From Candidatus Latescibacterota bacterium (lineage in GTDB: Bacteria > Latescibacterota > UBA2968 > GCA-2709665), in contig OZ220733.1 of NCBI GenBank assembly GCA_965116875.1, positions 1,440,001-1,504,000 on the forward strand: a DNA stretch of 64,000 nucleotides, written 5' to 3'. A program made the translations under genes and the position numbers. Shown piece after piece: positions 35,851-47,788 of the stretch. The first letter of the stretch is position 1. Every line of letters begins with the position of its first letter. The notes below the pieces were generated by a model, which had not been told where the DNA came from, ran no database searches, and worked only from the letters and a program-made list of their open reading frames with translations.

Positions 35851-36852
35851 CTACTTCCACTTGAACACAACGCCCAGCGCGGCTGCCGGATCATCGGCCA
35901 GCATCGTGTAGATTTCCTGGCACTGTTCCGGGGCGGCGACGTGGGTGATGAGGTCTTCGACGGGCAATCTGCCCTCCCCCATCAGACGCATCACCAGTCT
36001 GCGGTCCCGGTCCTTCGCCCATCGGTAGTAGATGTGATCGGCTTCCGGCGTCTTGGGCTGGTGGGCGCCCAGGATGCTGACTTCCCGCAGATGCACGTCG
36101 GCAAGGAAATCCATGTCGACGGTGCCGCGCGGCGAACCCAGCGCGACCACGCGGCCCGCGGTGCAGGCAAGCCGGACGGCGGTGGGATATACCGCGGGTT
36201 TCCCGGTCGCTTCGATTACGACGTTGGCGCCGTCTTCGACGCAGTATTGCCCCACCGCGTCCCGGACGTCGTCCACCTCTCCGGGATTGATGCAGATATC
36301 CGTACCGCGGCTGCGGGCCATATCCAGGCGAAAGCCGTCCAGGTCGATGGTGATCACCGGGAGGGCGCCGGAGAGCCGGGCCAGGGTCGCCGCCAACTGG
36401 CCGACAATCCCCAGGCCGATGACGACGACAACCTCTCCCAATTCGATACGCGCCACGCGAATTCCGTGGATGGCGATCGCCCCCATGACCATAAAGGCGG
36501 CGGCCCTGGGCGACACGGAGTCCGGAACCTTCACATAGAACGCCCTTCCGCCGTAGAGAATGCTGTGGCTGGCATGGTTTCCCTGGCCGGCGACGCGATC
36601 TCCCGGCCGGATGCCTTCAACGTCTTTGCCGACTTCCAGCACCGTGCCCACGTTGCAATAGCCGGTGGCGCGGGGAAACCGAACCGGGTTTCCGGGTTCT
36701 CCGCCGTGGATCCATCCGTGGATCTCGGTGCCCACGCTGACGGCTGTGTACTCGTTTTCCAGAAGGATCCCGTCATCTGGTACCGTACCCGTTTCGAAGG
36801 ACGCGACTTCCATCCGGCGAATACCGGGGATCTGGAGACGTCTGGCTTTCAT
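35851..36852 (-). CDS. MDR-family dehydrogenase
   Basis: VSVGTE, GYCNVG, GLGIVG, VIEATG. Confidence 0.88.
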   Translation of the reverse strand: MKARRLQIPGIRRMEVASFETGTVPDDGILLENEYTAVSVGTEIHGWIHGGEPGNPVRFPRATGYCNVGTVLEVGKDVEGIRPGDRVAGQGNHASHSILYGGRAFYVKVPDSVSPRAAAFMVMGAIAIHGIRVARIELGEVVVVIGLGIVGQLAATLARLSGALPVITIDLDGFRLDMARSRGTDICINPGEVDDVRDAVGQYCVEDGANVVIEATGKPAVYPTAVRLACTAGRVVALGSPRGTVDMDFLADVHLREVSILGAHQPKTPEADHIYYRWAKDRDRRLVMRLMGEGRLPVEDLITHVAAPEQCQEIYTMLADDPAAALGVVFKWK

Positions 36853-36915: not shown

Positions 36916-37953
36916 TTACGCCTGCCCGCGATCCAGGGTATTGCGGAAGAGTCGAAGGAAGTTCCCTCCCCAGACTTTCCGGATTTCGTCTTCCGAGAGG
37001 CCGCGAGCGAGCATCGCGCGGGTGAGGCGCACAAGGTTCGAGACGTCTCCGAAGACAGGCGTCTTCGAACCCATACCGTCGTAATCGGAGCCGACGCCGA
37101 CGTGGTCGATGCCGACCAGGTCCGCCACGTGACAGATATGGTCGACCATCCGGTCCACGGAAGGATTTTCCGGATCGATAAAGCCCGGGAGAAACGCAAT
37201 ACCCATCACCCCGCCGACCCCGGCCAGCGCCCTGAGCTGATCGTCGGTCAGGCAGCGCCAGTGGTTGCAGACGGAAAAGGCCGCGGTGTGGGTCATCGTT
37301 ACCGGAAGCGATGACTGTTCCAGTACCTGGTAGAAAGCCCTGTCGTTGATATGGGCGAGGTCCGTGACGACGCCCAGCCGGTTGCTTTCCTTCAGCACAG
37401 CTTTGCCGAAGTCCGTCAGCCCGCTGGCGCTCCTGCGTTCCCGTTCACGGTCTTCAGGCGTACACGGCCCGAAAGGACTCCTGCTTCCCTGCAGCAGAAA
37501 GGGGTCGTCCCCGCCTTCGCCGTGGGTGATGCCGATGCAGCGAATGCCCAGGCGGTAGTAAAGACGCAATGTATCCATTTCGCCTTCCAGCCAGCGTCCC
37601 GCGCCTTCGATTGTGAGCAGGATGCCGATCTTGCCGGATTCCTTCGCCCGTTCAACGTCCCGGGACGAGAACACCAACATCAGATCGTCCGGATAAAGCT
37701 CCACAGACGCCAGGGTCTGTTCGAGGGTGACCCTGACGTTGGCGGTGGGACCGTTGCCGACGACGAAAAAGCCGGCGTCGAACCCGCCTTCCCGCATCCG
37801 CGGAATGTCCATGTGATACGCGAGGTCCCGTTTCTTCAGGTCCATCGGGCGATCGCCACGGTGTACATGCTCCACCGGCGTGTCGTTGTGGCCGTCGACG
37901 ATCAGGCAGCGATCGTGGACCGCCTGCGCTTCTTCAAGGGTGATTTCCGGCAT
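36916..37953 (-). CDS. Membrane dipeptidase family (M19)
   Basis: DGHND, IEG, DLAH, TH, HVGVGSDYDG, GGNFLR; start taken at MPEITLEE. Confidence 0.92.
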   Translation of the reverse strand: MPEITLEEAQAVHDRCLIVDGHNDTPVEHVHRGDRPMDLKKRDLAYHMDIPRMREGGFDAGFFVVGNGPTANVRVTLEQTLASVELYPDDLMLVFSSRDVERAKESGKIGILLTIEGAGRWLEGEMDTLRLYYRLGIRCIGITHGEGGDDPFLLQGSRSPFGPCTPEDRERERRSASGLTDFGKAVLKESNRLGVVTDLAHINDRAFYQVLEQSSLPVTMTHTAAFSVCNHWRCLTDDQLRALAGVGGVMGIAFLPGFIDPENPSVDRMVDHICHVADLVGIDHVGVGSDYDGMGSKTPVFGDVSNLVRLTRAMLARGLSEDEIRKVWGGNFLRLFRNTLDRGQA

Positions 37954-38011
37954 GTGGATTGTCCCTGGCTGAGTGGATTTGCGTGATGGATCGGTGCGCT
38001 TTGAGTGCACA

Positions 38012-39334
38012 CTACGGCGGATCGACGGGTACTTTCTGTCTCTTGCTGACCAGCGGGTCGTACGTGAACCCTTCGGAGCGTCTTTCGAACTCCGCGCGCG
38101 CCTTTTTCAATTTCTCCGGGTCCCTGCACAGGTCGACCGCACTACCGGCGAAGACTTTCGCCGTCTGCCGGACCGCGCGATCGGCGAAAGGCAGGGCAGC
38201 CTGCGCGGCCATGTCCCGGTGGTGGCCGGGCGTTCCCTTCGCGTAACAGACCATCTCGAAGCGTCCCAGAGGGGCCAGCCAGGAGACATTGTCCTCGTCC
38301 GTGGATCCCCGTCCCTGCGAGCCGCTGCCTTTGGCGATCTTCGTGTTGAACCCTTTCTTGTAGCCAAGGCCTTCGGCGTGCTTCACGTCGGCTTCCGTCG
38401 GTTTGGGAGGCCCGAAGAGCTTGAGATTCTTTCGGACGATCTCACACATCGCCTTGTTGGGCAGACGCGGGTACACGGCGGTGATTCGCGACCATTTCAT
38501 CTTCGTATCGGTAGCCCTGGCGGCGCCCCGGGCGCAGGCGGTGAGGCGTTCACGCACGTCGTCGACCTGCGCGCGGTCCTTGCCTCGAACGAAGTACCAG
38601 ATCTTGGCATAGGCCGGTACCACGTTGGGTGCGTCCCCTCCATCGCGGATCACGGAATGGATCCTGACGTTCTCGGGGACATGCTCGCGGAGATAGTTGG
38701 CGGCGACGTCCGTAAGCATCACCCCGTCCAGCGCGCTGCGGCCCCGGTGGGCCGACGCGCCGTGGGCGGTGCGGCCGAAGAACTCATAAACGAGGGAGTC
38801 CAACGACGACCCGCCGAAATTGTTGACGCCCGAAGCATCCCCCGGATGCCACGCAAGGCAGACGGCCAGGTCCCGGAAGGCGCCGTCGCGGGCCATGTAG
38901 ACTTTGCCACCCAGGGTTTCCTCCGCCGGACAGCCGTAGTAGACGATTTTGCCCGATACTCCGGTTGATTCAAGGATCTTCGCAGCGGCGACCGCACCCA
39001 CGGCCGGGGCAACGCCCAGGAGGTTATGGCCTCAGCCGTGACCCCATTGACCTTCTTCGGGGCCGCAGTTGGGCAGCGCGTCGTACTCCCCCAGCAGTCC
39101 GACCGCAGGTTCTCCTGCGCCCCGGGTCGCGCGAAACGCCGTGGGAATCTTCTTGAACGGAAATTCAACCTCGAAGCCACGAGAGTCCAGATAGTCCGCG
39201 ATCGCCCGGGAGGACTTGACTTCCCGGAAGGGCCGTTCCGCCCAGGCGTGCACCTTACCCGAAAGTACCCTTGCCCGTTTCGATTCCGCGGCGACGGCGC
39301 GGTTGACGAGACTCTTTTTTTCTTTTTTGGTCAT
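38012..39334 (-). CDS. M20 amidohydrolase (AbgB-like), 440 aa with in-frame TGA at codon 101 (candidate selenocysteine)
   Basis: Two same-frame ORFs joined: GEYDALP...GHG[TGA]GHNLLG...GCPAEE...WHP...GRTAHG...GSTD; GGGAGGG RBS before ATG 39334. Confidence 0.85.
39002..39031 (-). promoter_or_regulatory. Candidate bacterial SECIS element
   Basis: 3' of the UGA: GGCCAUAACCUCCUGGGC-GUU-GCCCCGGCC; apical loop begins with G, 18 nt after the UGA. Confidence 0.5.
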
Positions 39335-39347
39335 GGCACCCTCCCAT

Positions 39348-40442
39348 TCAGGTATCCGGGTTCGCGACGGCATCCGCCACCGCATCGCCCACTTCGTGCG
39401 TCCCGGCGGCGCCTCCGAGATCGGCCGGGTGGTTCTTCGGATCGTCCAGCGCCCGGTCGACGGCGCGGTCGATCGTCTCCGAGGCGGCGATGGCTTCGGT
39501 ATCGTCATGACGTGCGCCCAGCCAGGAAAGCATCATCCCGGCGGAGAGAATCTGCGCCATGGGATTGGCGATACCGCTCCCGGCGATATCCGGTGCGGTT
39601 CCGTGGGACGGCTGGAAGACGCCGTAACGGTCGCCCACGTCGGCCGAGGGCGCCATCCCCATTCCGCCGATGGTTGCGGCGGCCAGGTCCGAGATGATGT
39701 CCCCGAACATATTCTCCGCGACGACAACGTCGTACCAGGCGGGGTTGCGCAACTGGTACACGGTGAATGCGTCCACGTAGGCATAGTCCCGTTCGATGCC
39801 CGGATAGGACTCAGCGACCTCGTCGTAGATCTGCCTGAAAAAGGCCATGCTCTTCAGGATGTTGGCCTTGTCCACTGACGTCACGCGGCGCCTGCCGTCG
39901 GCCGGCGCACCCTTCCGTTGCTTCGCGATTTCAAAGGCATACTTGACGATCCGCTCGGTACCGGCGCGGGTGATCACCATATTGTCCACGGCGAGGCTGT
40001 CTCCCAGCCGGACCCCGGCGCCTCGGGAGGCGTAGAGGCCCTCGGTATTCTCGCGCATGATGACGTAGTCGAGCGGCGGGTTTCCATCCAGAAGCGGAGG
40101 CACGCCCCGGTATTTCTTGATGGGCCGTATGCCGGCGTACAGGTCCAGCTCGAAGCGCAGCGTGAGTTGCGGCGCGATTTCCGTGCCGTCGGGAAAACGA
40201 ACGTCCGGATCGCCGGCGGAGCCGAAGAGTACCGCGTCGGCCTTCCTGCAGGCTTCGAGCGTGGATTCCGGAAGGTCAACCCCGGTCTCGGCGTAGCACG
40301 CGGCGCCAACCCGGTGTTCGGAAAAGGTGAAGCGGAGATCGGGATGCGGTTCCTCGAGCGCCAGTAGCACCTTGAGCGCTTCCGCGACCACTTCCGGCCC
40401 AACGCCGTCTCCGGGGAGTACCGCGATGTTGTACGTTGGCAT
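39348..40442 (-). CDS. Isocitrate/isopropylmalate/tartrate dehydrogenase family
   Basis: LPGDGVGPEV, RENTEGLY, DKAN, NMFGDIISD, HGTAPDIAG, NP. Confidence 0.92.
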   Translation of the reverse strand: MPTYNIAVLPGDGVGPEVVAEALKVLLALEEPHPDLRFTFSEHRVGAACYAETGVDLPESTLEACRKADAVLFGSAGDPDVRFPDGTEIAPQLTLRFELDLYAGIRPIKKYRGVPPLLDGNPPLDYVIMRENTEGLYASRGAGVRLGDSLAVDNMVITRAGTERIVKYAFEIAKQRKGAPADGRRRVTSVDKANILKSMAFFRQIYDEVAESYPGIERDYAYVDAFTVYQLRNPAWYDVVVAENMFGDIISDLAAATIGGMGMAPSADVGDRYGVFQPSHGTAPDIAGSGIANPMAQILSAGMMLSWLGARHDDTEAIAASETIDRAVDRALDDPKNHPADLGGAAGTHEVGDAVADAVANPDT

Positions 40443-41631: not shown

Positions 41632-42017
41632 AAAGGATTTCCAGGATCAGATGTGAACGTACGATCCGATAAAGTAAGCCAAAAACAGTCGGTTGGAAAT
41701 CAAAAAAGGCGGCGTCGAAGGGCCCCTGAATCGCATACGGGAATTAGGTCTTGACGGCCGCTACAAGATGTAGTACTTTTCTGACACCGCAATGGATTAT
41801 TCCCCAATCTGTTGCGTATTCCTCACCTCCCCTTCTTTCCCCCTTTCGTCGCTATACTCGTTGTTCCAGACCCATAGCGAGCGTCCGGCGCAGTCCGGGT
41901 CATGATACGATGGATCGGCGCGGCTTGCGTTACCTCCCTGCCATTGCGCCAATTCTGACTCGTCCAGCGCATCCATTCTGAAAGTGCGGATGTCTGTGTC
42001 CTTCAGGAGGCGAAACA

Positions 42018-45000
42018 TTGTACCTTTCCAGACTGACGGCATTGGGCTTCAAATCCTTCGTACAACAATTGGATCTCTCGCTGCAGAAAGGCATTACGTG
42101 CGTTGTTGGCCCCAACGGCTGCGGCAAATCCAACGTGGTGGACGCCCTGCGCTGGGCGCTGGGCGAGCAGCGGGTCCGGTCGCTGCGCAGCAACAATATG
42201 GAGGATGTGATTTTTTCCGGAACGCGGAACCGGAAACCGCTGGGCATGGCCGAGGTATCGATCACCATCGACAACGCGGAACGGATTCTGCCGGTCGACT
42301 ATACCGAAGTGACCGTGACCCGCCGGCTGTTCCGGTCCGGGGACAGCGACTATCTGCTCAACAAGGTCCCCTGCAGGCTGAAGGATATTCAGAATCTTCT
42401 GATGGATACCGGGCTGGGCGCCCATGCGTATTCCGTCATCGAGCAGGGGATGATGGATGAAATCATTAGCGACAAACCGGAAGAAAGGCGGCGGCTGTTC
42501 GAGGAGGCGGCGGGCGTAACGCGGTATAAGTTGCAGCGGCGGGCGGCGTGGAACCGACTGGAGTCCGTCCGGCAGGATCTGCAGACTGTGGATGCTGTCA
42601 TGGCGGAGGTCGAGCGCCAGGTGAAATCGCTCGCCAGGCAGGAGAGGAAAGCCCGGCTTTACATTCAGCTCTCGGACCAGATGAAAGACCTCGAAGTCCG
42701 GCTGGGACGACACCTGTTTTTTCAGATGTCCGAAAGGTCCCGTCCGGTCGCGGATGAGACGGCGCTCCTGAAAGAGGACGTCGAGGTGGCCGCCGGAGAC
42801 ATCGCGCGCCTGGAGGCGCGCCTTGAAGACGTCCGTACCGAACTGTCCGAGCGCGATCGGGCGCTCAGAGAGGCGAACGCGGAAGTGAGCCGGCAGAGTC
42901 AACTCGTACACAGGAAAGACACCCATATCCAGGTGGCGCAGGAGAGAATCCGTTCAATTGACGCTTTTCTGGAGCAGGCGGACCGGCAACAGGAAGACAT
43001 GGCGCACCGGCGGGATGCGGCACGGAAGGAAGCGGCTGGCGCGCGGCGGCTGGAAGCGGAGGCGCGCGGGGCATTGCAACACGCGAAAAGCGCATTGGAG
43101 GCCGAGCGCCGAGAACTGGAAGCAACGAACCTGGCGCTTGACGCGCGGAGAACCCGTGCGGACGAACAGAAGTCCCACCTGATACGCGCCCTGGGTGAAC
43201 TCAGTGAAGGAAGCAGCCGGCTGGAACGCGGACGGGCGAGACTGGAGGGAATCAACCAACGCCAGTCCCGACTCGAAGCCGACGCAAAGCAGTCGGCGCT
43301 CCGCAAGGAGGAAGCGGACGCCAAAGGACGCGAAGCGAAACGGGAGATCGATCGCCTGGAACGCGACGTGGCCGACAGGATCCGGCTGAGGGAGATGGAC
43401 GCCGAAAAGTACGGGCGCCTGCTTGAACAGCAGGAGAAAATGACGGAAGAGCGCAGCCGGTTGCGGGCCGGAAGGGAGGCCGACGATGCGAGGATCGGAC
43501 TGCTGAAGAAACTTCGTGAGGGATTCGAGGGGTATTCGAGCGGCGTCCGCGCGCTGGCGGTGGAATCTCCATTTGCCGATCGCGTGCGCGGCGTGGTTGC
43601 AGACCGGATTGACGTGGACGGGCGTTACGCGACAGCCATTGAAGCTGCACTGGGACGTGCGTTGGAATGTCTTCTCGTGGACGAACCGGCAGATGCATTG
43701 AACGCCATCGACTACCTGCAGTCGGGCGACCTCGGATCGGCGGCGTTTCTGCCGATGGACTCCCTTTCGAACGGTAACGGCGCGCCGTGGACGACGCCGG
43801 ATGCGGAAGGCGTGGTGGGAAGGGCGTCGGATCTCCTGCACGGCGAGGAATCTCCGGTACACGCGCTGCTCCACCGGACGCTGGTCGTGAAAACAGCAGA
43901 GAACGCGCTTGCGCTGTTGGAAGAAATGAGGACTCTCGGCGTGGACCTGGTGACCGAGAGCGGCGAGTTGTTCTCGGCTGACGGTACCATATACGGGGGT
44001 AAGACCACCGAGGATGGAACGGGCCTGATCGGGCGCAGGCAGGAGATTGAAACGCTTGAAGCAAGCCTGAGCGCCGCAGGCGAGGCGCTGCAGTCGCTGG
44101 ATACGAGACTCGAAGAGACCTCCGCATCGCTGGTCGAAATGCAAGCCCGTATCAACGAAACCGACGGGATTCTGGCGGACCTGAACAACCGTCTGGCCGC
44201 AAGCCGCAGGGACCTGCAGATTGCCCGGGAGGAAGAGCAGCGACAGTTGCGTGTGGAGGTGGAATTGCGGGATGAAATCGCCGCGGTGACGTCCGACGAA
44301 ACCGGGCTGAGAGAAGCCATCGCTTCCGAGGCGGCGGAATTGAACGTGCTGGAGAAACGACGGGAGCAGCTGGAAGCAGCAACGGGTGAGGCGGACGCGG
44401 CGTTGCGGGAGCAGGAACAGCAGCAGAGGGCCGAACAGGACGCGTTTTCAAGCCGGCAGGTGGAGATCGCATCGCTGACAGCCGGCGTGGACCGCCACGA
44501 ACATGAAGGGCAGAGGTGGACGCAGGACCTGACCGAAACCGACAGAGAGATGAAACGACTGGCCGCCGACTGCGAGGAACGGCGAAAGGAAAGACTCGGC
44601 CTGGAAAAGGCGGCCCGGGATTCCGGGAAGGAACTGGAGACCCTTCATCGCAGGCAGGACGAACTGGAATCGAAGCGGGACACGCAGGCGGAGCGTCAGC
44701 AGGCATTGTTGACGGATACCCGGCAGCTCGAAGAGGAAGTGCGGGACAAGAACCGTCGCGCGAATCAGAACAGGGACCGTCTGGTTCAGCTTCAGGCGGA
44801 GATGGCGGAACTCAGAACCGGCGCCGAGGCTCTGCGGGCGCGAATTCTGGATGAGTACGAGGTGGACGTCAGAGAAGCGGGCGCACTGGACGATCCGGAG
44901 TTCAACGCTGACGTAACGGAGAGGCAAAGAGACGAGCTACGCGAACGAATCCGTCGGATGGGTCCGGTCAATCCGGGCGCCGTGGAAGAGTACGAAGAAC

Positions 45001-45614
45001 AGAAAAATCACTACGAGTTCATGTCGAAACACCGGAGCGACCTGCTCGAGGCGGCCGAAACCCTTCAGCGGACCATTTCCCGGATCGACAGGACGGCCCG
45101 CGGCAGGTTCATGGTTACGTTCGATCAGATCAAGGAGAACTTCCGGAAGACTTTCGAGGCGTTCTTCGATGGAGGCCAGGCGGACCTCCTGATGCCCCCT
45201 GACGAAGACCCTCTGGAAGCCCCGCTGGAGATCATCGCCCGGCCGAGAGGCAAACGGCTCCAGCACATCAACCTGCTGTCGGGCGGAGAGCGGGCGCTCA
45301 CCGCGATCGCGCTCCTGTTCGCGATCTACCTGGTCAAGCCCAGTCCGTTCTGCATCCTGGACGAGGTCGACGCTCCTCTGGACGACGCCAACGTCACGCG
45401 TTTCGTGCGGGTCCTCAAGCGGTTCGCGGCCGACACCCAGTTCATTGTGGTAACCCACAACAAGGTGACGATGGACGCGGCGGACTGCCTGCACGGGATT
45501 ACGATGGAAGAACCGGGGGTATCCAGGCTGGTATCGGTAAGACTGGACCACGAAACCCACGGTGGCAACGGGCAGGCGGAAGCCGTGGCCGCAACCACGG
45601 CCGCCGACGACTGA
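42018..45614 (+). CDS. smc: Chromosome segregation protein SMC
   Basis: GFKSF, GPNGCGKSN, coiled coils, hinge, LSGGE, LDEVDAPLD. Confidence 0.97.
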   Translation: MYLSRLTALGFKSFVQQLDLSLQKGITCVVGPNGCGKSNVVDALRWALGEQRVRSLRSNNMEDVIFSGTRNRKPLGMAEVSITIDNAERILPVDYTEVTVTRRLFRSGDSDYLLNKVPCRLKDIQNLLMDTGLGAHAYSVIEQGMMDEIISDKPEERRRLFEEAAGVTRYKLQRRAAWNRLESVRQDLQTVDAVMAEVERQVKSLARQERKARLYIQLSDQMKDLEVRLGRHLFFQMSERSRPVADETALLKEDVEVAAGDIARLEARLEDVRTELSERDRALREANAEVSRQSQLVHRKDTHIQVAQERIRSIDAFLEQADRQQEDMAHRRDAARKEAAGARRLEAEARGALQHAKSALEAERRELEATNLALDARRTRADEQKSHLIRALGELSEGSSRLERGRARLEGINQRQSRLEADAKQSALRKEEADAKGREAKREIDRLERDVADRIRLREMDAEKYGRLLEQQEKMTEERSRLRAGREADDARIGLLKKLREGFEGYSSGVRALAVESPFADRVRGVVADRIDVDGRYATAIEAALGRALECLLVDEPADALNAIDYLQSGDLGSAAFLPMDSLSNGNGAPWTTPDAEGVVGRASDLLHGEESPVHALLHRTLVVKTAENALALLEEMRTLGVDLVTESGELFSADGTIYGGKTTEDGTGLIGRRQEIETLEASLSAAGEALQSLDTRLEETSASLVEMQARINETDGILADLNNRLAASRRDLQIAREEEQRQLRVEVELRDEIAAVTSDETGLREAIASEAAELNVLEKRREQLEAATGEADAALREQEQQQRAEQDAFSSRQVEIASLTAGVDRHEHEGQRWTQDLTETDREMKRLAADCEERRKERLGLEKAARDSGKELETLHRRQDELESKRDTQAERQQALLTDTRQLEEEVRDKNRRANQNRDRLVQLQAEMAELRTGAEALRARILDEYEVDVREAGALDDPEFNADVTERQRDELRERIRRMGPVNPGAVEEYEEQKNHYEFMSKHRSDLLEAAETLQRTISRIDRTARGRFMVTFDQIKENFRKTFEAFFDGGQADLLMPPDEDPLEAPLEIIARPRGKRLQHINLLSGGERALTAIALLFAIYLVKPSPFCILDEVDAPLDDANVTRFVRVLKRFAADTQFIVVTHNKVTMDAADCLHGITMEEPGVSRLVSVRLDHETHGGNGQAEAVAATTAADD

Positions 45615-45657
45615 ACGCATCGAGCCTGACATCAGGGTTGACGTATATTGGATCTGT

Positions 45658-47733
45658 TCAAACCGAACCCAGGCTCTTCAGGATCTTCGCGACCACGCCA
45701 TCCGTATCGCGTATTCCCAATCCGCCCAGGCGCTCCAGGACCATCCCCTGCGGATCGACCAGGAAATAGGCCGGTATCCCGCGAACATTGTAGTCGACGG
45801 CGGGTCCGGAACCGGAGACCCCGGAGCGCACGTGCACCCCTTCGATCCCGTGTTTTTCGATGGCCTTGCGCCATGCCGCGTCGCTGGAGTCCAGCGAAAG
45901 GTTGACGAAAACCACCGGCTGTCCGGCGGTTTCTTTTTTAATTTTTCGCAGAAAGGGCAAATCGACGATGCACGGCCCGCACCAACTCGCCCAGAAATCC
46001 AGCAGGACCACCTTGCCCCTGAACTGGCTCAGCGATACGGATTGGCCGTCGAGGTCCGTCAACGTAAAATCCGGCGCCGGACGCCCCGGTCGCAACGCCA
46101 TCGCCTTGTCCAGGGCCTCCAGAACCGCCGCGTTGTATTCCGGATAGGGGTTGGTCGCCCGAAAATCCTGCCACTTGCGATTGGCCCACGCAAAACTGTC
46201 GCCACCGCGCTGAAACCCACGAATCAATTCCCCGGCAAGGAACCAATAAAGCACTTTCCCCTTCAATTTCTTCTCGGCCAGTTCGATCCTTTGTGGCAGC
46301 GCCGGTATCGACCGTCTCTTGATCGCATAGATCGAATCGAGCTTTGCCTGCGCCGCCAGCGTCAGTCCCAGCCCGGCGAGATCCAGTTTGTCGGACAGTC
46401 TGAGCGGTCGGCGGTTATCGTAGAGCGAGTCGAGGTGTGCGCCGATCCCGGGCGATCGTTCCAGTGCCGATAGATCCACCATTTCCGATAATTTCAATGT
46501 CTTCCGGTACGACTTCAATCCATCCGGGGACGCTGCGCCGTCCTCATCGGGCAGCCGGAAGACCAGCGCGCCGCCCGTGGTATCAATCTTCGGCTCTTTC
46601 AGGTCCTTTGAGGTGGCAATCCTGTACGATCCATCACTCTTCGCGTAGAAGGAGTCGATCTCTGCCCGGGCCGCTTCCGACAAGCCCATCTTCTCCAGAT
46701 CCAGCATGTCGGATAGCCTGGATTTTCTCCTGTTGTCGTACAGGGAATCCAACCTGGCCCCGGCAGATTGCTGCAGGCCGATCCCTGAAAGATCGATCAT
46801 GTCCGACAGCCTCCGACGCCTGGTGCGGTTTTCGTACAGCGAGTCGAGCCGGGCGACGGTCGATTCCGGCAGATCAAGAGCAGCAAGGTCGTACAATCCC
46901 GATAATCTTGTCGGCCCGGGCCTCTTCATCATTTCCAGATCCATTGTCCGTACAAGGTAGGTTGGATACGTGTCCACACCGATCGCCTTCTCGTCGACAA
47001 GCGGGATCCTTTTGAGGAAGTCATAGAATCCGGGCGGGATATTCTCGTTCTCCCGGCCCGTGGCGCGCCGGTAATTGGTCGGGTATGAAATCTTCAGAAA
47101 TGCATACATGTAGTTGAAAAAACGTTCCGCATGCTCGATGAATCCGGGCGACAACGCGTATCTCGTGCGTCGCCGGTTCAGGAATTCAATCTGGTCCGCG
47201 CGCCATCCGTCCACGAGGCGGGAAAAGTCTCCCGCGTCCGCATCCCTGGCATCCCCGATCTTCCGCTGGAAGTCCCGGAACCGGGGGTACCATTCGGCAA
47301 TGAAGCGGTTGTTGTCCGCGTTCCGGCCGCTGTACCCGTAAGAGGTGTAGAGACGTCCAGGATGGATCCGGATGTGCAGGCTGTCCCCCGGTTCGACAAA
47401 CATCACCAGCGGACCGGGATTGAAAACGTACGACGCGGCCTGCCGGGCCCATTTCCATGGGATGCTTCTGCCCTTGTAGCTTCCGATTACAAGGGTCCCG
47501 CGGACGACGGGAATCTCCAGACTAAATCGGTTCCGGCTGTCCAGGGTCGCTTTTTGCTCCACCTTCCTGCCCAACGCCGTCGGCGTGTCGTACCTGAACG
47601 TGATTTCCCTGGACGTCGGGTCCCGGACTTCACCGGTGACAATCGCGACCGATGGCTCACTGCTTTCTGCGCCCGGACAGGCAGTTGATATCGCGAGAAT
47701 GGAGAGCAGAATGAGACGACATGTGTTCTTCAT
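45658..47733 (-). CDS. Exported TlpA/ResA-type redoxin with long N-terminal region and five internal repeats
   Basis: Signal peptide; C-terminal APDFTL...GKVVLLDFWASWCGPC...GIP; start trimmed to MKNTC. Confidence 0.88.
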   Translation of the reverse strand: MKNTCRLILLSILAISTACPGAESSEPSVAIVTGEVRDPTSREITFRYDTPTALGRKVEQKATLDSRNRFSLEIPVVRGTLVIGSYKGRSIPWKWARQAASYVFNPGPLVMFVEPGDSLHIRIHPGRLYTSYGYSGRNADNNRFIAEWYPRFRDFQRKIGDARDADAGDFSRLVDGWRADQIEFLNRRRTRYALSPGFIEHAERFFNYMYAFLKISYPTNYRRATGRENENIPPGFYDFLKRIPLVDEKAIGVDTYPTYLVRTMDLEMMKRPGPTRLSGLYDLAALDLPESTVARLDSLYENRTRRRRLSDMIDLSGIGLQQSAGARLDSLYDNRRKSRLSDMLDLEKMGLSEAARAEIDSFYAKSDGSYRIATSKDLKEPKIDTTGGALVFRLPDEDGAASPDGLKSYRKTLKLSEMVDLSALERSPGIGAHLDSLYDNRRPLRLSDKLDLAGLGLTLAAQAKLDSIYAIKRRSIPALPQRIELAEKKLKGKVLYWFLAGELIRGFQRGGDSFAWANRKWQDFRATNPYPEYNAAVLEALDKAMALRPGRPAPDFTLTDLDGQSVSLSQFRGKVVLLDFWASWCGPCIVDLPFLRKIKKETAGQPVVFVNLSLDSSDAAWRKAIEKHGIEGVHVRSGVSGSGPAVDYNVRGIPAYFLVDPQGMVLERLGGLGIRDTDGVVAKILKSLGSV

Positions 47734-47788
47734 GAATCGATCCCTCTGAGCGGGTTTCGGGTTATTGCACCCCAAAGTACGAGATTAA

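Follow-up and report, generated by a model that had tools for sequence, protein, structure and literature searches.

A candidate selenocysteine at the metal-site cysteine position of an M20D amidohydrolase from Candidatus Latescibacterota

Does the TGA that interrupts an amidohydrolase gene of a Candidatus Latescibacterota bacterium end its translation, or does it encode selenocysteine (Sec)? The gene lies within a stretch of 64,000 nucleotides (nt) of contig OZ220733.1 (assembly GCA_965116875.1, positions 1,440,001 to 1,504,000 of the forward strand), which is referred to here as the window. A first-pass annotation, made from the letters of the window alone, had joined two same-frame open reading frames (ORFs) across a single TGA into one M20/AbgB-type selenoprotein with a hairpin resembling a selenocysteine insertion sequence (SECIS). 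We consider it highly probable that the gene encodes a full-length 440-residue metallo-amidohydrolase of the M20D family, in which the UGA at codon 101 is decoded as Sec with the help of a SECIS element inside the gene and Sec takes the place of the Cys in the GHxCGH motif.

An in-frame UGA at the cysteine position of the M20D motif

The TGA between the two frames is present in the sequence, on the minus strand, an orientation that the first-pass annotation had left unstated. Translation with table 11 divides the gene into a 158-aa ORF ending at the TGA and a 329-aa ORF (38012..39001). The read-through product has 440 residues, ...EYDALPNCGPEEGQWGHG-U-GHNLLG..., and the motifs PAEE, WHP and GSTD are intact; together with a good ribosome-binding site and the absence of any other lesion, this was visible in the sequence and its translation, just as had been described. 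At the protein level, the context of the TGA is WGHG-TGA-GHNLLG, and the read-through protein around Sec reads ...GPEEGQWGHG-U-GHNLLGVAPAVG....

The product was assigned to the M20D amidohydrolases by the NCBIfam model TIGR01891 (182.5 bits against a cut-off of 153.75) and was also matched by Pfam M20_dimer (28.9 bits, cut-off 21); NCBIfam holds no model dedicated to the Sec form. By sequence, the closest solved structures are HmrA (3RAM, E 4.5e-41) and human PM20D2 (7YH4, 8XZC), with GHACGHN aligned to GHG-U-GHN. A family profile found 3RAM at 2.8e-55 and reached ILL2, YxeP, CsAga, 4EWT and 3IO1 as well. The AF2 model of the read-through protein (pLDDT 87.6, pTM 0.89) matches the two-domain fold, in which a dimerisation domain is inserted into the catalytic domain, and Foldseek returned 3RAM as its first match (E 1.6e-33, TM 0.80/0.89), followed by PM20D2, CsAga, 4EWT, 3IO1, YxeP and ILL2.

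The metal-ligand set of M20D enzymes consists of Cys-x-His, Glu, His and His, together with a catalytic Glu, and we take the motif Cys to be a metal ligand in YxeP, ILL2 and 4EWT. In 22 sequences compared, H103, E138, E139, H163 and H371 are invariant, residues whose roles we infer, and position 101 is either C or U. The U had been aligned with the Cys of GH(G/A)CGH, an assignment borne out by the relatives: the column of the UGA holds the GHGCGH or GHACGH Cys in all 141 Cys-form rows examined and Cys in 22/22 proteins inspected. For CsAga, a passage of PMC11511702 describes the motif Cys as bridging the two catalytic metal ions. Sec would thus stand in for a Cys that is metal binding in M20D enzymes and metal bridging in CsAga, and the enzyme would be a hydrolase with a selenolate ligand at its metal centre.

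Judging by its likeness to HmrA and PM20D2, the enzyme probably acts on a dipeptide or an N-acyl amino acid; HmrA appears as a Met-X carboxydipeptidase in the reference list of PMC11511702. The label AbgB found no backing beyond general family likeness, as neither an abgA-like gene nor a second M20 gene was found among the neighbours, and for the relatives 'AbgB' is only an automatic JGI name. AbgB proper is defined by a paired abgA gene and an abgT transporter in the operon.

The UGA is conserved far beyond the window. Searching 61 genomes (that of the window, here G000, and 60 relatives) with the read-through protein gave 52 matches at E<=1e-30, 49 of them with exactly one TGA. Across 168 genomes of the phylum, 73 matched at E<=1e-60. 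Exactly one TGA was found in 55 of the 168 genomes (species level; orthologue identity 68-100%), comprising 18 of family f1, which includes G000, 31 of family f2 and 6 of family f3; the remaining 21 match rows were free of any stop. Forty loci were fetched. All 37 that bear a TGA have it at codon 101, within WGHG-U-GHNLLG, and none has a second lesion, while the three TGA-free loci have TGC at that codon. A metagenome scan added 22 forms with TGA at the same codon and 57 Cys forms, a count biased to Cys because one of the two search patterns included it.

Among 91 pairs of 14 congeners, median dN/dS was 0.127 before the UGA (codons 1-100) and 0.084 after it (codons 102-440). Values this low on either side show that both parts of the gene are translated and under purifying selection. 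With the conserved UGA and the Cys/Sec pairing, they uphold the earlier proposal of Sec replacing a metal-binding Cys in a hydrolase and contradict the contrary outcome, in which all close homologues would have Cys and this copy would be under relaxed selection. Two side observations concern the same loci and genomes. The gene ends in TAG or TAA in 37/37 Sec forms read and in TGA in 3/3 Cys forms read; the TAG/TAA ends may simply have been inherited in the clade, or Sec genes may avoid a second UGA. Single-contig genomes of the clade (G007, G009, G017, G038 and others) scored 5-12% 'contamination', which looks like an artefact of the lineage marker set and not like real contamination.

The host has the genes for Sec. 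G000 is one contig of 5.45 Mb, and outside the window it carries selA (549 bits), selB (373 bits) and tRNA-Sec (selC; 73 bits), clustered at 184-188 kb, as well as a selD with an in-frame TGA of its own; all of these matches are above curated cut-offs. In the phylum, selB was found in 128/168 genomes and in 53/55 of those with the TGA form. The two TGA-form genomes lacking a selB match are fragmented metagenome-assembled genomes (MAGs), 84% and 91% complete, both with selD(TGA) and one with selA. In the proposed mechanism, codon 101 would be decoded by SelA, SelB, tRNA-Sec and SelD of the host.

Beyond selD, G000 has six further genes of known selenoprotein families with one TGA each: one FdhA-like, three peroxiredoxin-like, of which two stand in tandem with near-identical contexts LGHN-U, and two SelW/Rdx-like. 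Each of these seven UGAs is followed by a hairpin with the loop GGUC(U), AGUU or GUU (GGUCU in the FdhA-like gene) and GU at nt 20-26, counted as below. This list comes from three family searches and covers part of the selenoproteome. Genome-wide lists of in-frame TGA candidates, based on GC3 and codon usage, were dropped because most entries were noise or adjacent genes in the same frame.

The RNA block that follows the UGA

Positions 3' of the codon are given as an index, the nt position counted from the U of the UGA (SECIS coordinates). In 35 gap-free Sec forms, synonymous entropy over the gene is lowest in the 12-codon windows starting at codons 103-108 (0.41-0.52 bits, compared with a gene mean of 1.158). 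Codons 107-114 are nearly invariant in Sec forms (GGC GUU GCC CCG GCC GYR GGU GCG): their synonymous entropy is 0-0.65 bits in 43 distinct Sec rows versus 1.39-1.94 bits in 63 distinct Cys rows encoding the same amino acids. Because the Sec rows represent a narrower clade than the Cys rows, the flanking codons matter as an internal control, and codons 102-106 and 117 are alike in the two groups (Sec, 0.82-1.90 bits; Cys, 0.66-1.81 bits). In five Cys rows, the very same peptide, LLGVAPA[AV]GAV, is spelled with different codons. The frozen block is present in 43/43 distinct Sec rows and absent from 63/63 Cys rows. On this sequence evidence, a SECIS element is present in the coding sequence 3' of the UGA, and it would direct decoding from 14-47 nt after that codon.

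Which hairpin within the block does so is less clear-cut. The one proposed in the first-pass annotation (H1) does exist, its loop G standing 18 nt downstream of the UGA. The GU of this loop, at index 21-22, lies at the same distance as that of selD and within the range of the seven other SECIS loops of G000. However, H1 covers no more than the 5' end of a conserved block some 34 nt long, and folding favours either a second hairpin (H2), which directly abuts H1 and has its loop 32 nt from the UGA, or a longer hairpin (index 18-47). Predicted energies were -7.4 kcal/mol for H1, -9.3 for H2 alone, about -15 for the H1 core combined with H2 and -16.1 for the long hairpin. Predicted pair probabilities exceeded 0.5 for H2 in 33 of 49 distinct rows and for the long hairpin in 11, all of family f1 and nine from the window's own genus; the outer pairs of H1 had a mean of 0.01.

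The pairs of all three models are largely kept across 38 distinct sequences. For the H1 core plus H2, 417/418 cells are paired (99.8%), and one pair occurs as G-C 30, G-U 5, A-U 2 and other 1. For H1, 96.1% of cells are paired, with one inner pair (col 22-36) appearing as C-G 23, U-G 12 and U-A 3 and never unpaired; for the long hairpin the value is 93.2%, with no compensatory change. The 11 pairs of the H1 core plus H2 form in 42/43 Sec rows, whereas the Cys rows form only 1-10 of them. The first-pass annotation had suggested looking for a covarying hairpin in relatives; the pairs are kept there and one pair shows a compensatory change, a weak signal. Covariation as proof of one particular hairpin was given up, the variation being too scarce to separate the three models.

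According to a figure legend (Fig. 2) of PMC13188914, a consensus bacterial SECIS (bSECIS) has a loop of 3-9 nt whose first two positions include a G, a stem of 4-16 bp, a distance of 16-37 nt from the UGA and a minimum free energy of -7.5 or less. H2 fits all four published constraints (4-nt loop with an early G, 7-bp stem, 32 nt, -9.3 kcal/mol). H1 fits three and, at -7.4 kcal/mol, just misses the energy limit. In comparison with the consensus, the block differs in that two adjacent hairpins, or one long alternative, are conserved together. We speculate that SelB would bind a two-hairpin SECIS in which H1 serves as partner or compact spacer for H2.

Competing explanations of the UGA

It is improbable, in our judgment, that the UGA is instead read as a standard amino acid, by a near-cognate Trp, Cys or Arg tRNA or by a suppressor tRNA, with the hairpins acting as a read-through stimulator. 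Structured RNA 3' of a stop codon can indeed stimulate read-through. However, TGA is the commonest ordinary stop in G000, where it closes 1319/2344 long frames, and the genetic code is therefore not reassigned; the site is exactly a Cys/Sec pair, the block fits the bSECIS constraints, and GU-loop hairpins accompany seven or more further Sec-type UGAs in the same genome. In addition, a Cys form is seen in a genus for which the search for Sec genes came up empty: G059 (68% identity; genus g14; 86% complete) has the sole close Cys orthologue of the genomes searched, and neither selA nor selB nor a selD above cut-off was found in 2/2 genomes of g14 (86% and 90% complete). This is an anecdote from one lineage, and it points in the expected direction.

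Still less probable is a split enzyme, in which the UGA would be a true stop and a 100-aa N-terminal piece would act together with a 329-aa piece restarting at GTG 39001. The GTG-started ORF exists and databases list it as a protein. A restart at codon 112, however, would drop residues 102-111, including the invariant H103, and would place the break inside the metal-binding motif. The split would also leave unexplained why a stop occurs at the Cys-aligned codon in every lineage, why the block is frozen in TGA forms only and why the TGA form goes together with Sec genes.

A pseudogene, a recent TGY-to-TGA mutation or a sequencing error, which the first-pass annotation had kept in play, is excluded by the conservation and selection data. 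The TGA is one nucleotide from TGC or TGT, and public gene calls treat the gene as truncated (16/120 listed matches are 294-351 aa long), but the same TGA recurs in 55 genomes, whose orthologues are as little as 68% identical, as well as in 22 metagenome contigs, no second lesion occurs in 37 loci, and dN/dS is low in both parts. Independent contigs keep the TGA as well: a DNA contig (X3) from a run labelled coral-reef metagenome and a contig (X19) from a run labelled sponge metatranscriptome both span the codon and show no difference at 39032-39034, while leaving parts of the gene uncovered. As it comes from an RNA library, X19 also gives weak evidence that the gene is transcribed. The same public data bear on where the organism occurs: DNA near-identical or 95-99% similar to window positions 37900-39450 was found in runs labelled sponge and coral-reef metagenomes. 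At least part of this segment occurs in 9 studies, 4 runs of which were compared, and the assembly may derive from the two runs that contain it in full.

The idea that the frozen block serves a function unrelated to decoding, such as an antisense gene, a small-RNA site or an attenuator, deserves equally little credence: covariation alone cannot prove structure and long opposite-strand frames do exist in this GC-rich region, but such frames are expected by chance at 60% G+C, and the block begins 14-18 nt after the UGA in 43/43 Sec rows and in 0/63 Cys rows, including the 5 with the same peptide.

Several points nevertheless weigh against decoding of the UGA as Sec through the block described here. 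Covariation is weak because the block hardly varies; only one pair shows a compensatory change, and 32/500 shuffles reach the score observed for the best model. For members of the window's own genus, the fold predicted to be most stable is another, longer hairpin. The H2 loop, with its GU at index 37-38, is set back from the UGA by 12-17 nt more than the GU of G000's seven other SECIS loops, and one lineage (L044/L075, genome G050) has ACA for GUU in the H1 loop. An Rfam scan of 38850-39150 at E<=10 returned no SECIS family and a single chance match to a long noncoding RNA. Cys forms up to 76% identical exist, and Sec is therefore not needed for fold or function. The presumed role of the Cys as a ligand is taken from one review passage on CsAga and from the general picture for YxeP, ILL2 and 4EWT. 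Finally, we infer Sec in a protein of an uncultured organism from its sequence.

Table 1. Features of the locus and other Sec-type UGAs of the same genome. Positions are those of the window unless C1 is given.
Feature	Coordinates	Strand	Remarks
Candidate selenoprotein coding sequence (CDS; M20D amidohydrolase, HmrA/PM20D2 type)	38012..39334	-	440 codons including UGA-101; sequence, translation, TIGR01891, fold, dN/dS
CDS ends	ATG 39334-39332; true stop TAG 38014-38012	-	Sequence
Predicted Sec codon UGA, codon 101	39032..39034	-	Aligned with Cys of GHxCGH; sole in-frame TGA
Shine-Dalgarno sequence GGGAGGG	39339..39345	-	4 nt upstream of ATG; sequence
Predicted SECIS block	38987..39020	-	Index 14-47; least synonymous variation in the gene
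Hairpin H1, CCUGGGC-GUU-GCCCCGG (first-pass annotation)	39004..39020	-	Index 14-30; loop GUU at index 21-23; 4-bp core 39017-39014 with 39010-39007
Hairpin H2, CGGCCGY-RGGU-GCGGUCG	38989..39006	-	7 bp; index 28-45; loop at index 35-38; directly abuts H1
Iso_dh family dehydrogenase (isopropylmalate/tartrate dehydrogenase-like)	39348..40442	-	Upstream neighbour; ends 13 nt before ATG
M19 dipeptidase	36916..38010	-	Downstream neighbour; PF01244, 270.5 bits
Zn-dependent alcohol dehydrogenase (Zn-ADH) family gene	35851..36852	-	Context
Seven other Sec-type UGAs of G000 (six genes of known families and selD)	C1 4663279(+), 2538771(+), 4151796(-), 4152825(-), 3214923(-), 711994(-), 1070744(+)		

Cysteine relatives, neighbouring genes and known systems

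Many full-length Cys forms, 56-76% identical over 440 aa (P0002-P0121), were among the matches listed in a protein search. Named sources are MAGs of Planctomycetota, Verrucomicrobiota (Chthoniobacteraceae), Kiritimatiellia and Phycisphaerae; the others are metagenomic. The 294-351 aa entries among the 120 listed matches are pieces of Sec forms, one of them named only 'peptidase dimerization domain-containing protein'. In a FastTree phylogeny of 194 rows (53 Sec, 141 Cys), all Sec forms are confined to a single terminal clade; its 72 rows also include 19 Cys forms, scattered among the Sec forms. At least four changes between Sec and Cys are needed to explain the tree, three of them forced by well-supported branches; this switch count (at least 3-4) derives from a quick tree and FastTree with SH-like support only. 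The Cys orthologues resemble the Sec forms in length and in the context WGHG-C-GHNLLG and differ in having TGY instead of TGA, with synonymous codons free where those of the Sec forms are frozen.

The gene belongs to a same-strand array comprising an SSF transporter, Zn-ADH, M19 dipeptidase, the M20D (Sec) gene, the Iso_dh-family dehydrogenase and an enolase-superfamily protein. The f1 and f2 loci have the arrangement Iso_dh - M20D - Zn-ADH in common. Of the loci checked, the 13 of f1 (L064-L074, L083, L084) and L076 have M19 next to the gene, and 0/6 other f2-type loci do. None of the f1/f2 neighbours accompanies the gene in f3-type loci. In gene trees, the f3-type Sec forms (L079-L082) nest within the f2 group (support 97-98). 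Such nesting, in loci with different neighbours, gives a hint that the Sec gene has moved from one family to another.

Further ORFs were noted upstream of the array, all on the minus strand. Three of 231-396 aa (42003-42926, 42954-44144 and 44937-45632) have no Pfam match at E<=1e-5 and may not be real genes, the region being GC-rich. A 705-aa ORF (45658-47775) has 120 C-terminal residues that are redoxin/AhpC-TSA/thioredoxin-like and contain no TGA, and a large N-terminal part with no Pfam match at the same threshold.

A fuller account of the locus can be formulated, and we regard its chances as evenly balanced. It holds that a non-redox hydrolase family has Sec bridging a two-metal centre, that this Sec is kept by selection in Sec-competent Latescibacterota and has been exchanged with Cys several times within a single orthologous group, that it is specified by a two-hairpin SECIS combining the GU-loop H1 at canonical distance with the GGU-loop H2, and that the selenolate retunes the active site. 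Metal preference, Lewis acidity or tolerance to oxidation would then be the properties affected. Decoding of codon 101 as Sec would by itself make the protein a rare selenium enzyme without redox chemistry. It belongs to a well-understood family with solved structures and natural Cys forms up to 76% identical, so that a side-by-side comparison is possible and the benefit of selenium to an enzyme without a redox step becomes testable. The case also matters for annotation. Because public gene calls cut the gene into pieces, an enzyme conserved in 55/168 genomes of a candidate phylum, with near-identical DNA in sponge and coral-reef runs, is recorded as broken.

No mention of an M20 or amidohydrolase selenoprotein was found in the main text, including the family table, of a 2026 review of prokaryotic selenoproteomes (PMC13188914), nor in the main texts of deep-Sep (PMC12013277), BSepDB (PMC13326102) and PMC8318568, whose supplementary tables, not covered here, may list such an entry. 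The same applies to the available portions of the 'eight unexpected families' preprint, the 2022 review, the GOS paper and the Olavius symbiont paper. One candidate source (PMC5658510) was set aside as irrelevant; in the part available, it reports Sec genes to be absent in Campylobacter avium and mentions an M20 hippuricase separately. PMC9312934, in the portion available, describes most prokaryotic selenoproteins as redox proteins and calls Sec in non-redox proteins unexplained.

Both the recoding system and the enzyme family are familiar ones. What sets the gene apart is the predicted placement of Sec at a hydrolase's metal site. Among Cys-type M20D enzymes, structures are available for HmrA of S. 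aureus (3RAM), PM20D2, a beta-alanyl-lysine / Xaa-Arg dipeptidase (7YH4/8XZC), CsAga of Corynebacterium (6SLF), YxeP (1YSJ), ILL2 (1XMB) and 4EWT. The candidate selenoprotein shares their family, their fold and the motifs GHxCGH, PAEE, (W/I)HP and GSTD. It differs from them in having UGA/Sec for their Cys and a predicted in-gene SECIS, and its identity to them is just 24-27%.

Sec is known as a metal ligand in formate dehydrogenase (Mo/W) and in [NiFeSe] hydrogenase. SaoB, SaoC and MbdU are proposed metal-binding selenoproteins, as presented in the main text of PMC13188914. With all of these, the protein described here has in common a UGA with a downstream SECIS, the existence of Cys homologues and the likely placement of Sec at a metal site. 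Those proteins, however, act in redox reactions or in metal handling and resistance, whereas the present one would be a hydrolytic enzyme of the two-metal peptidase type, with no redox step in its known chemistry.

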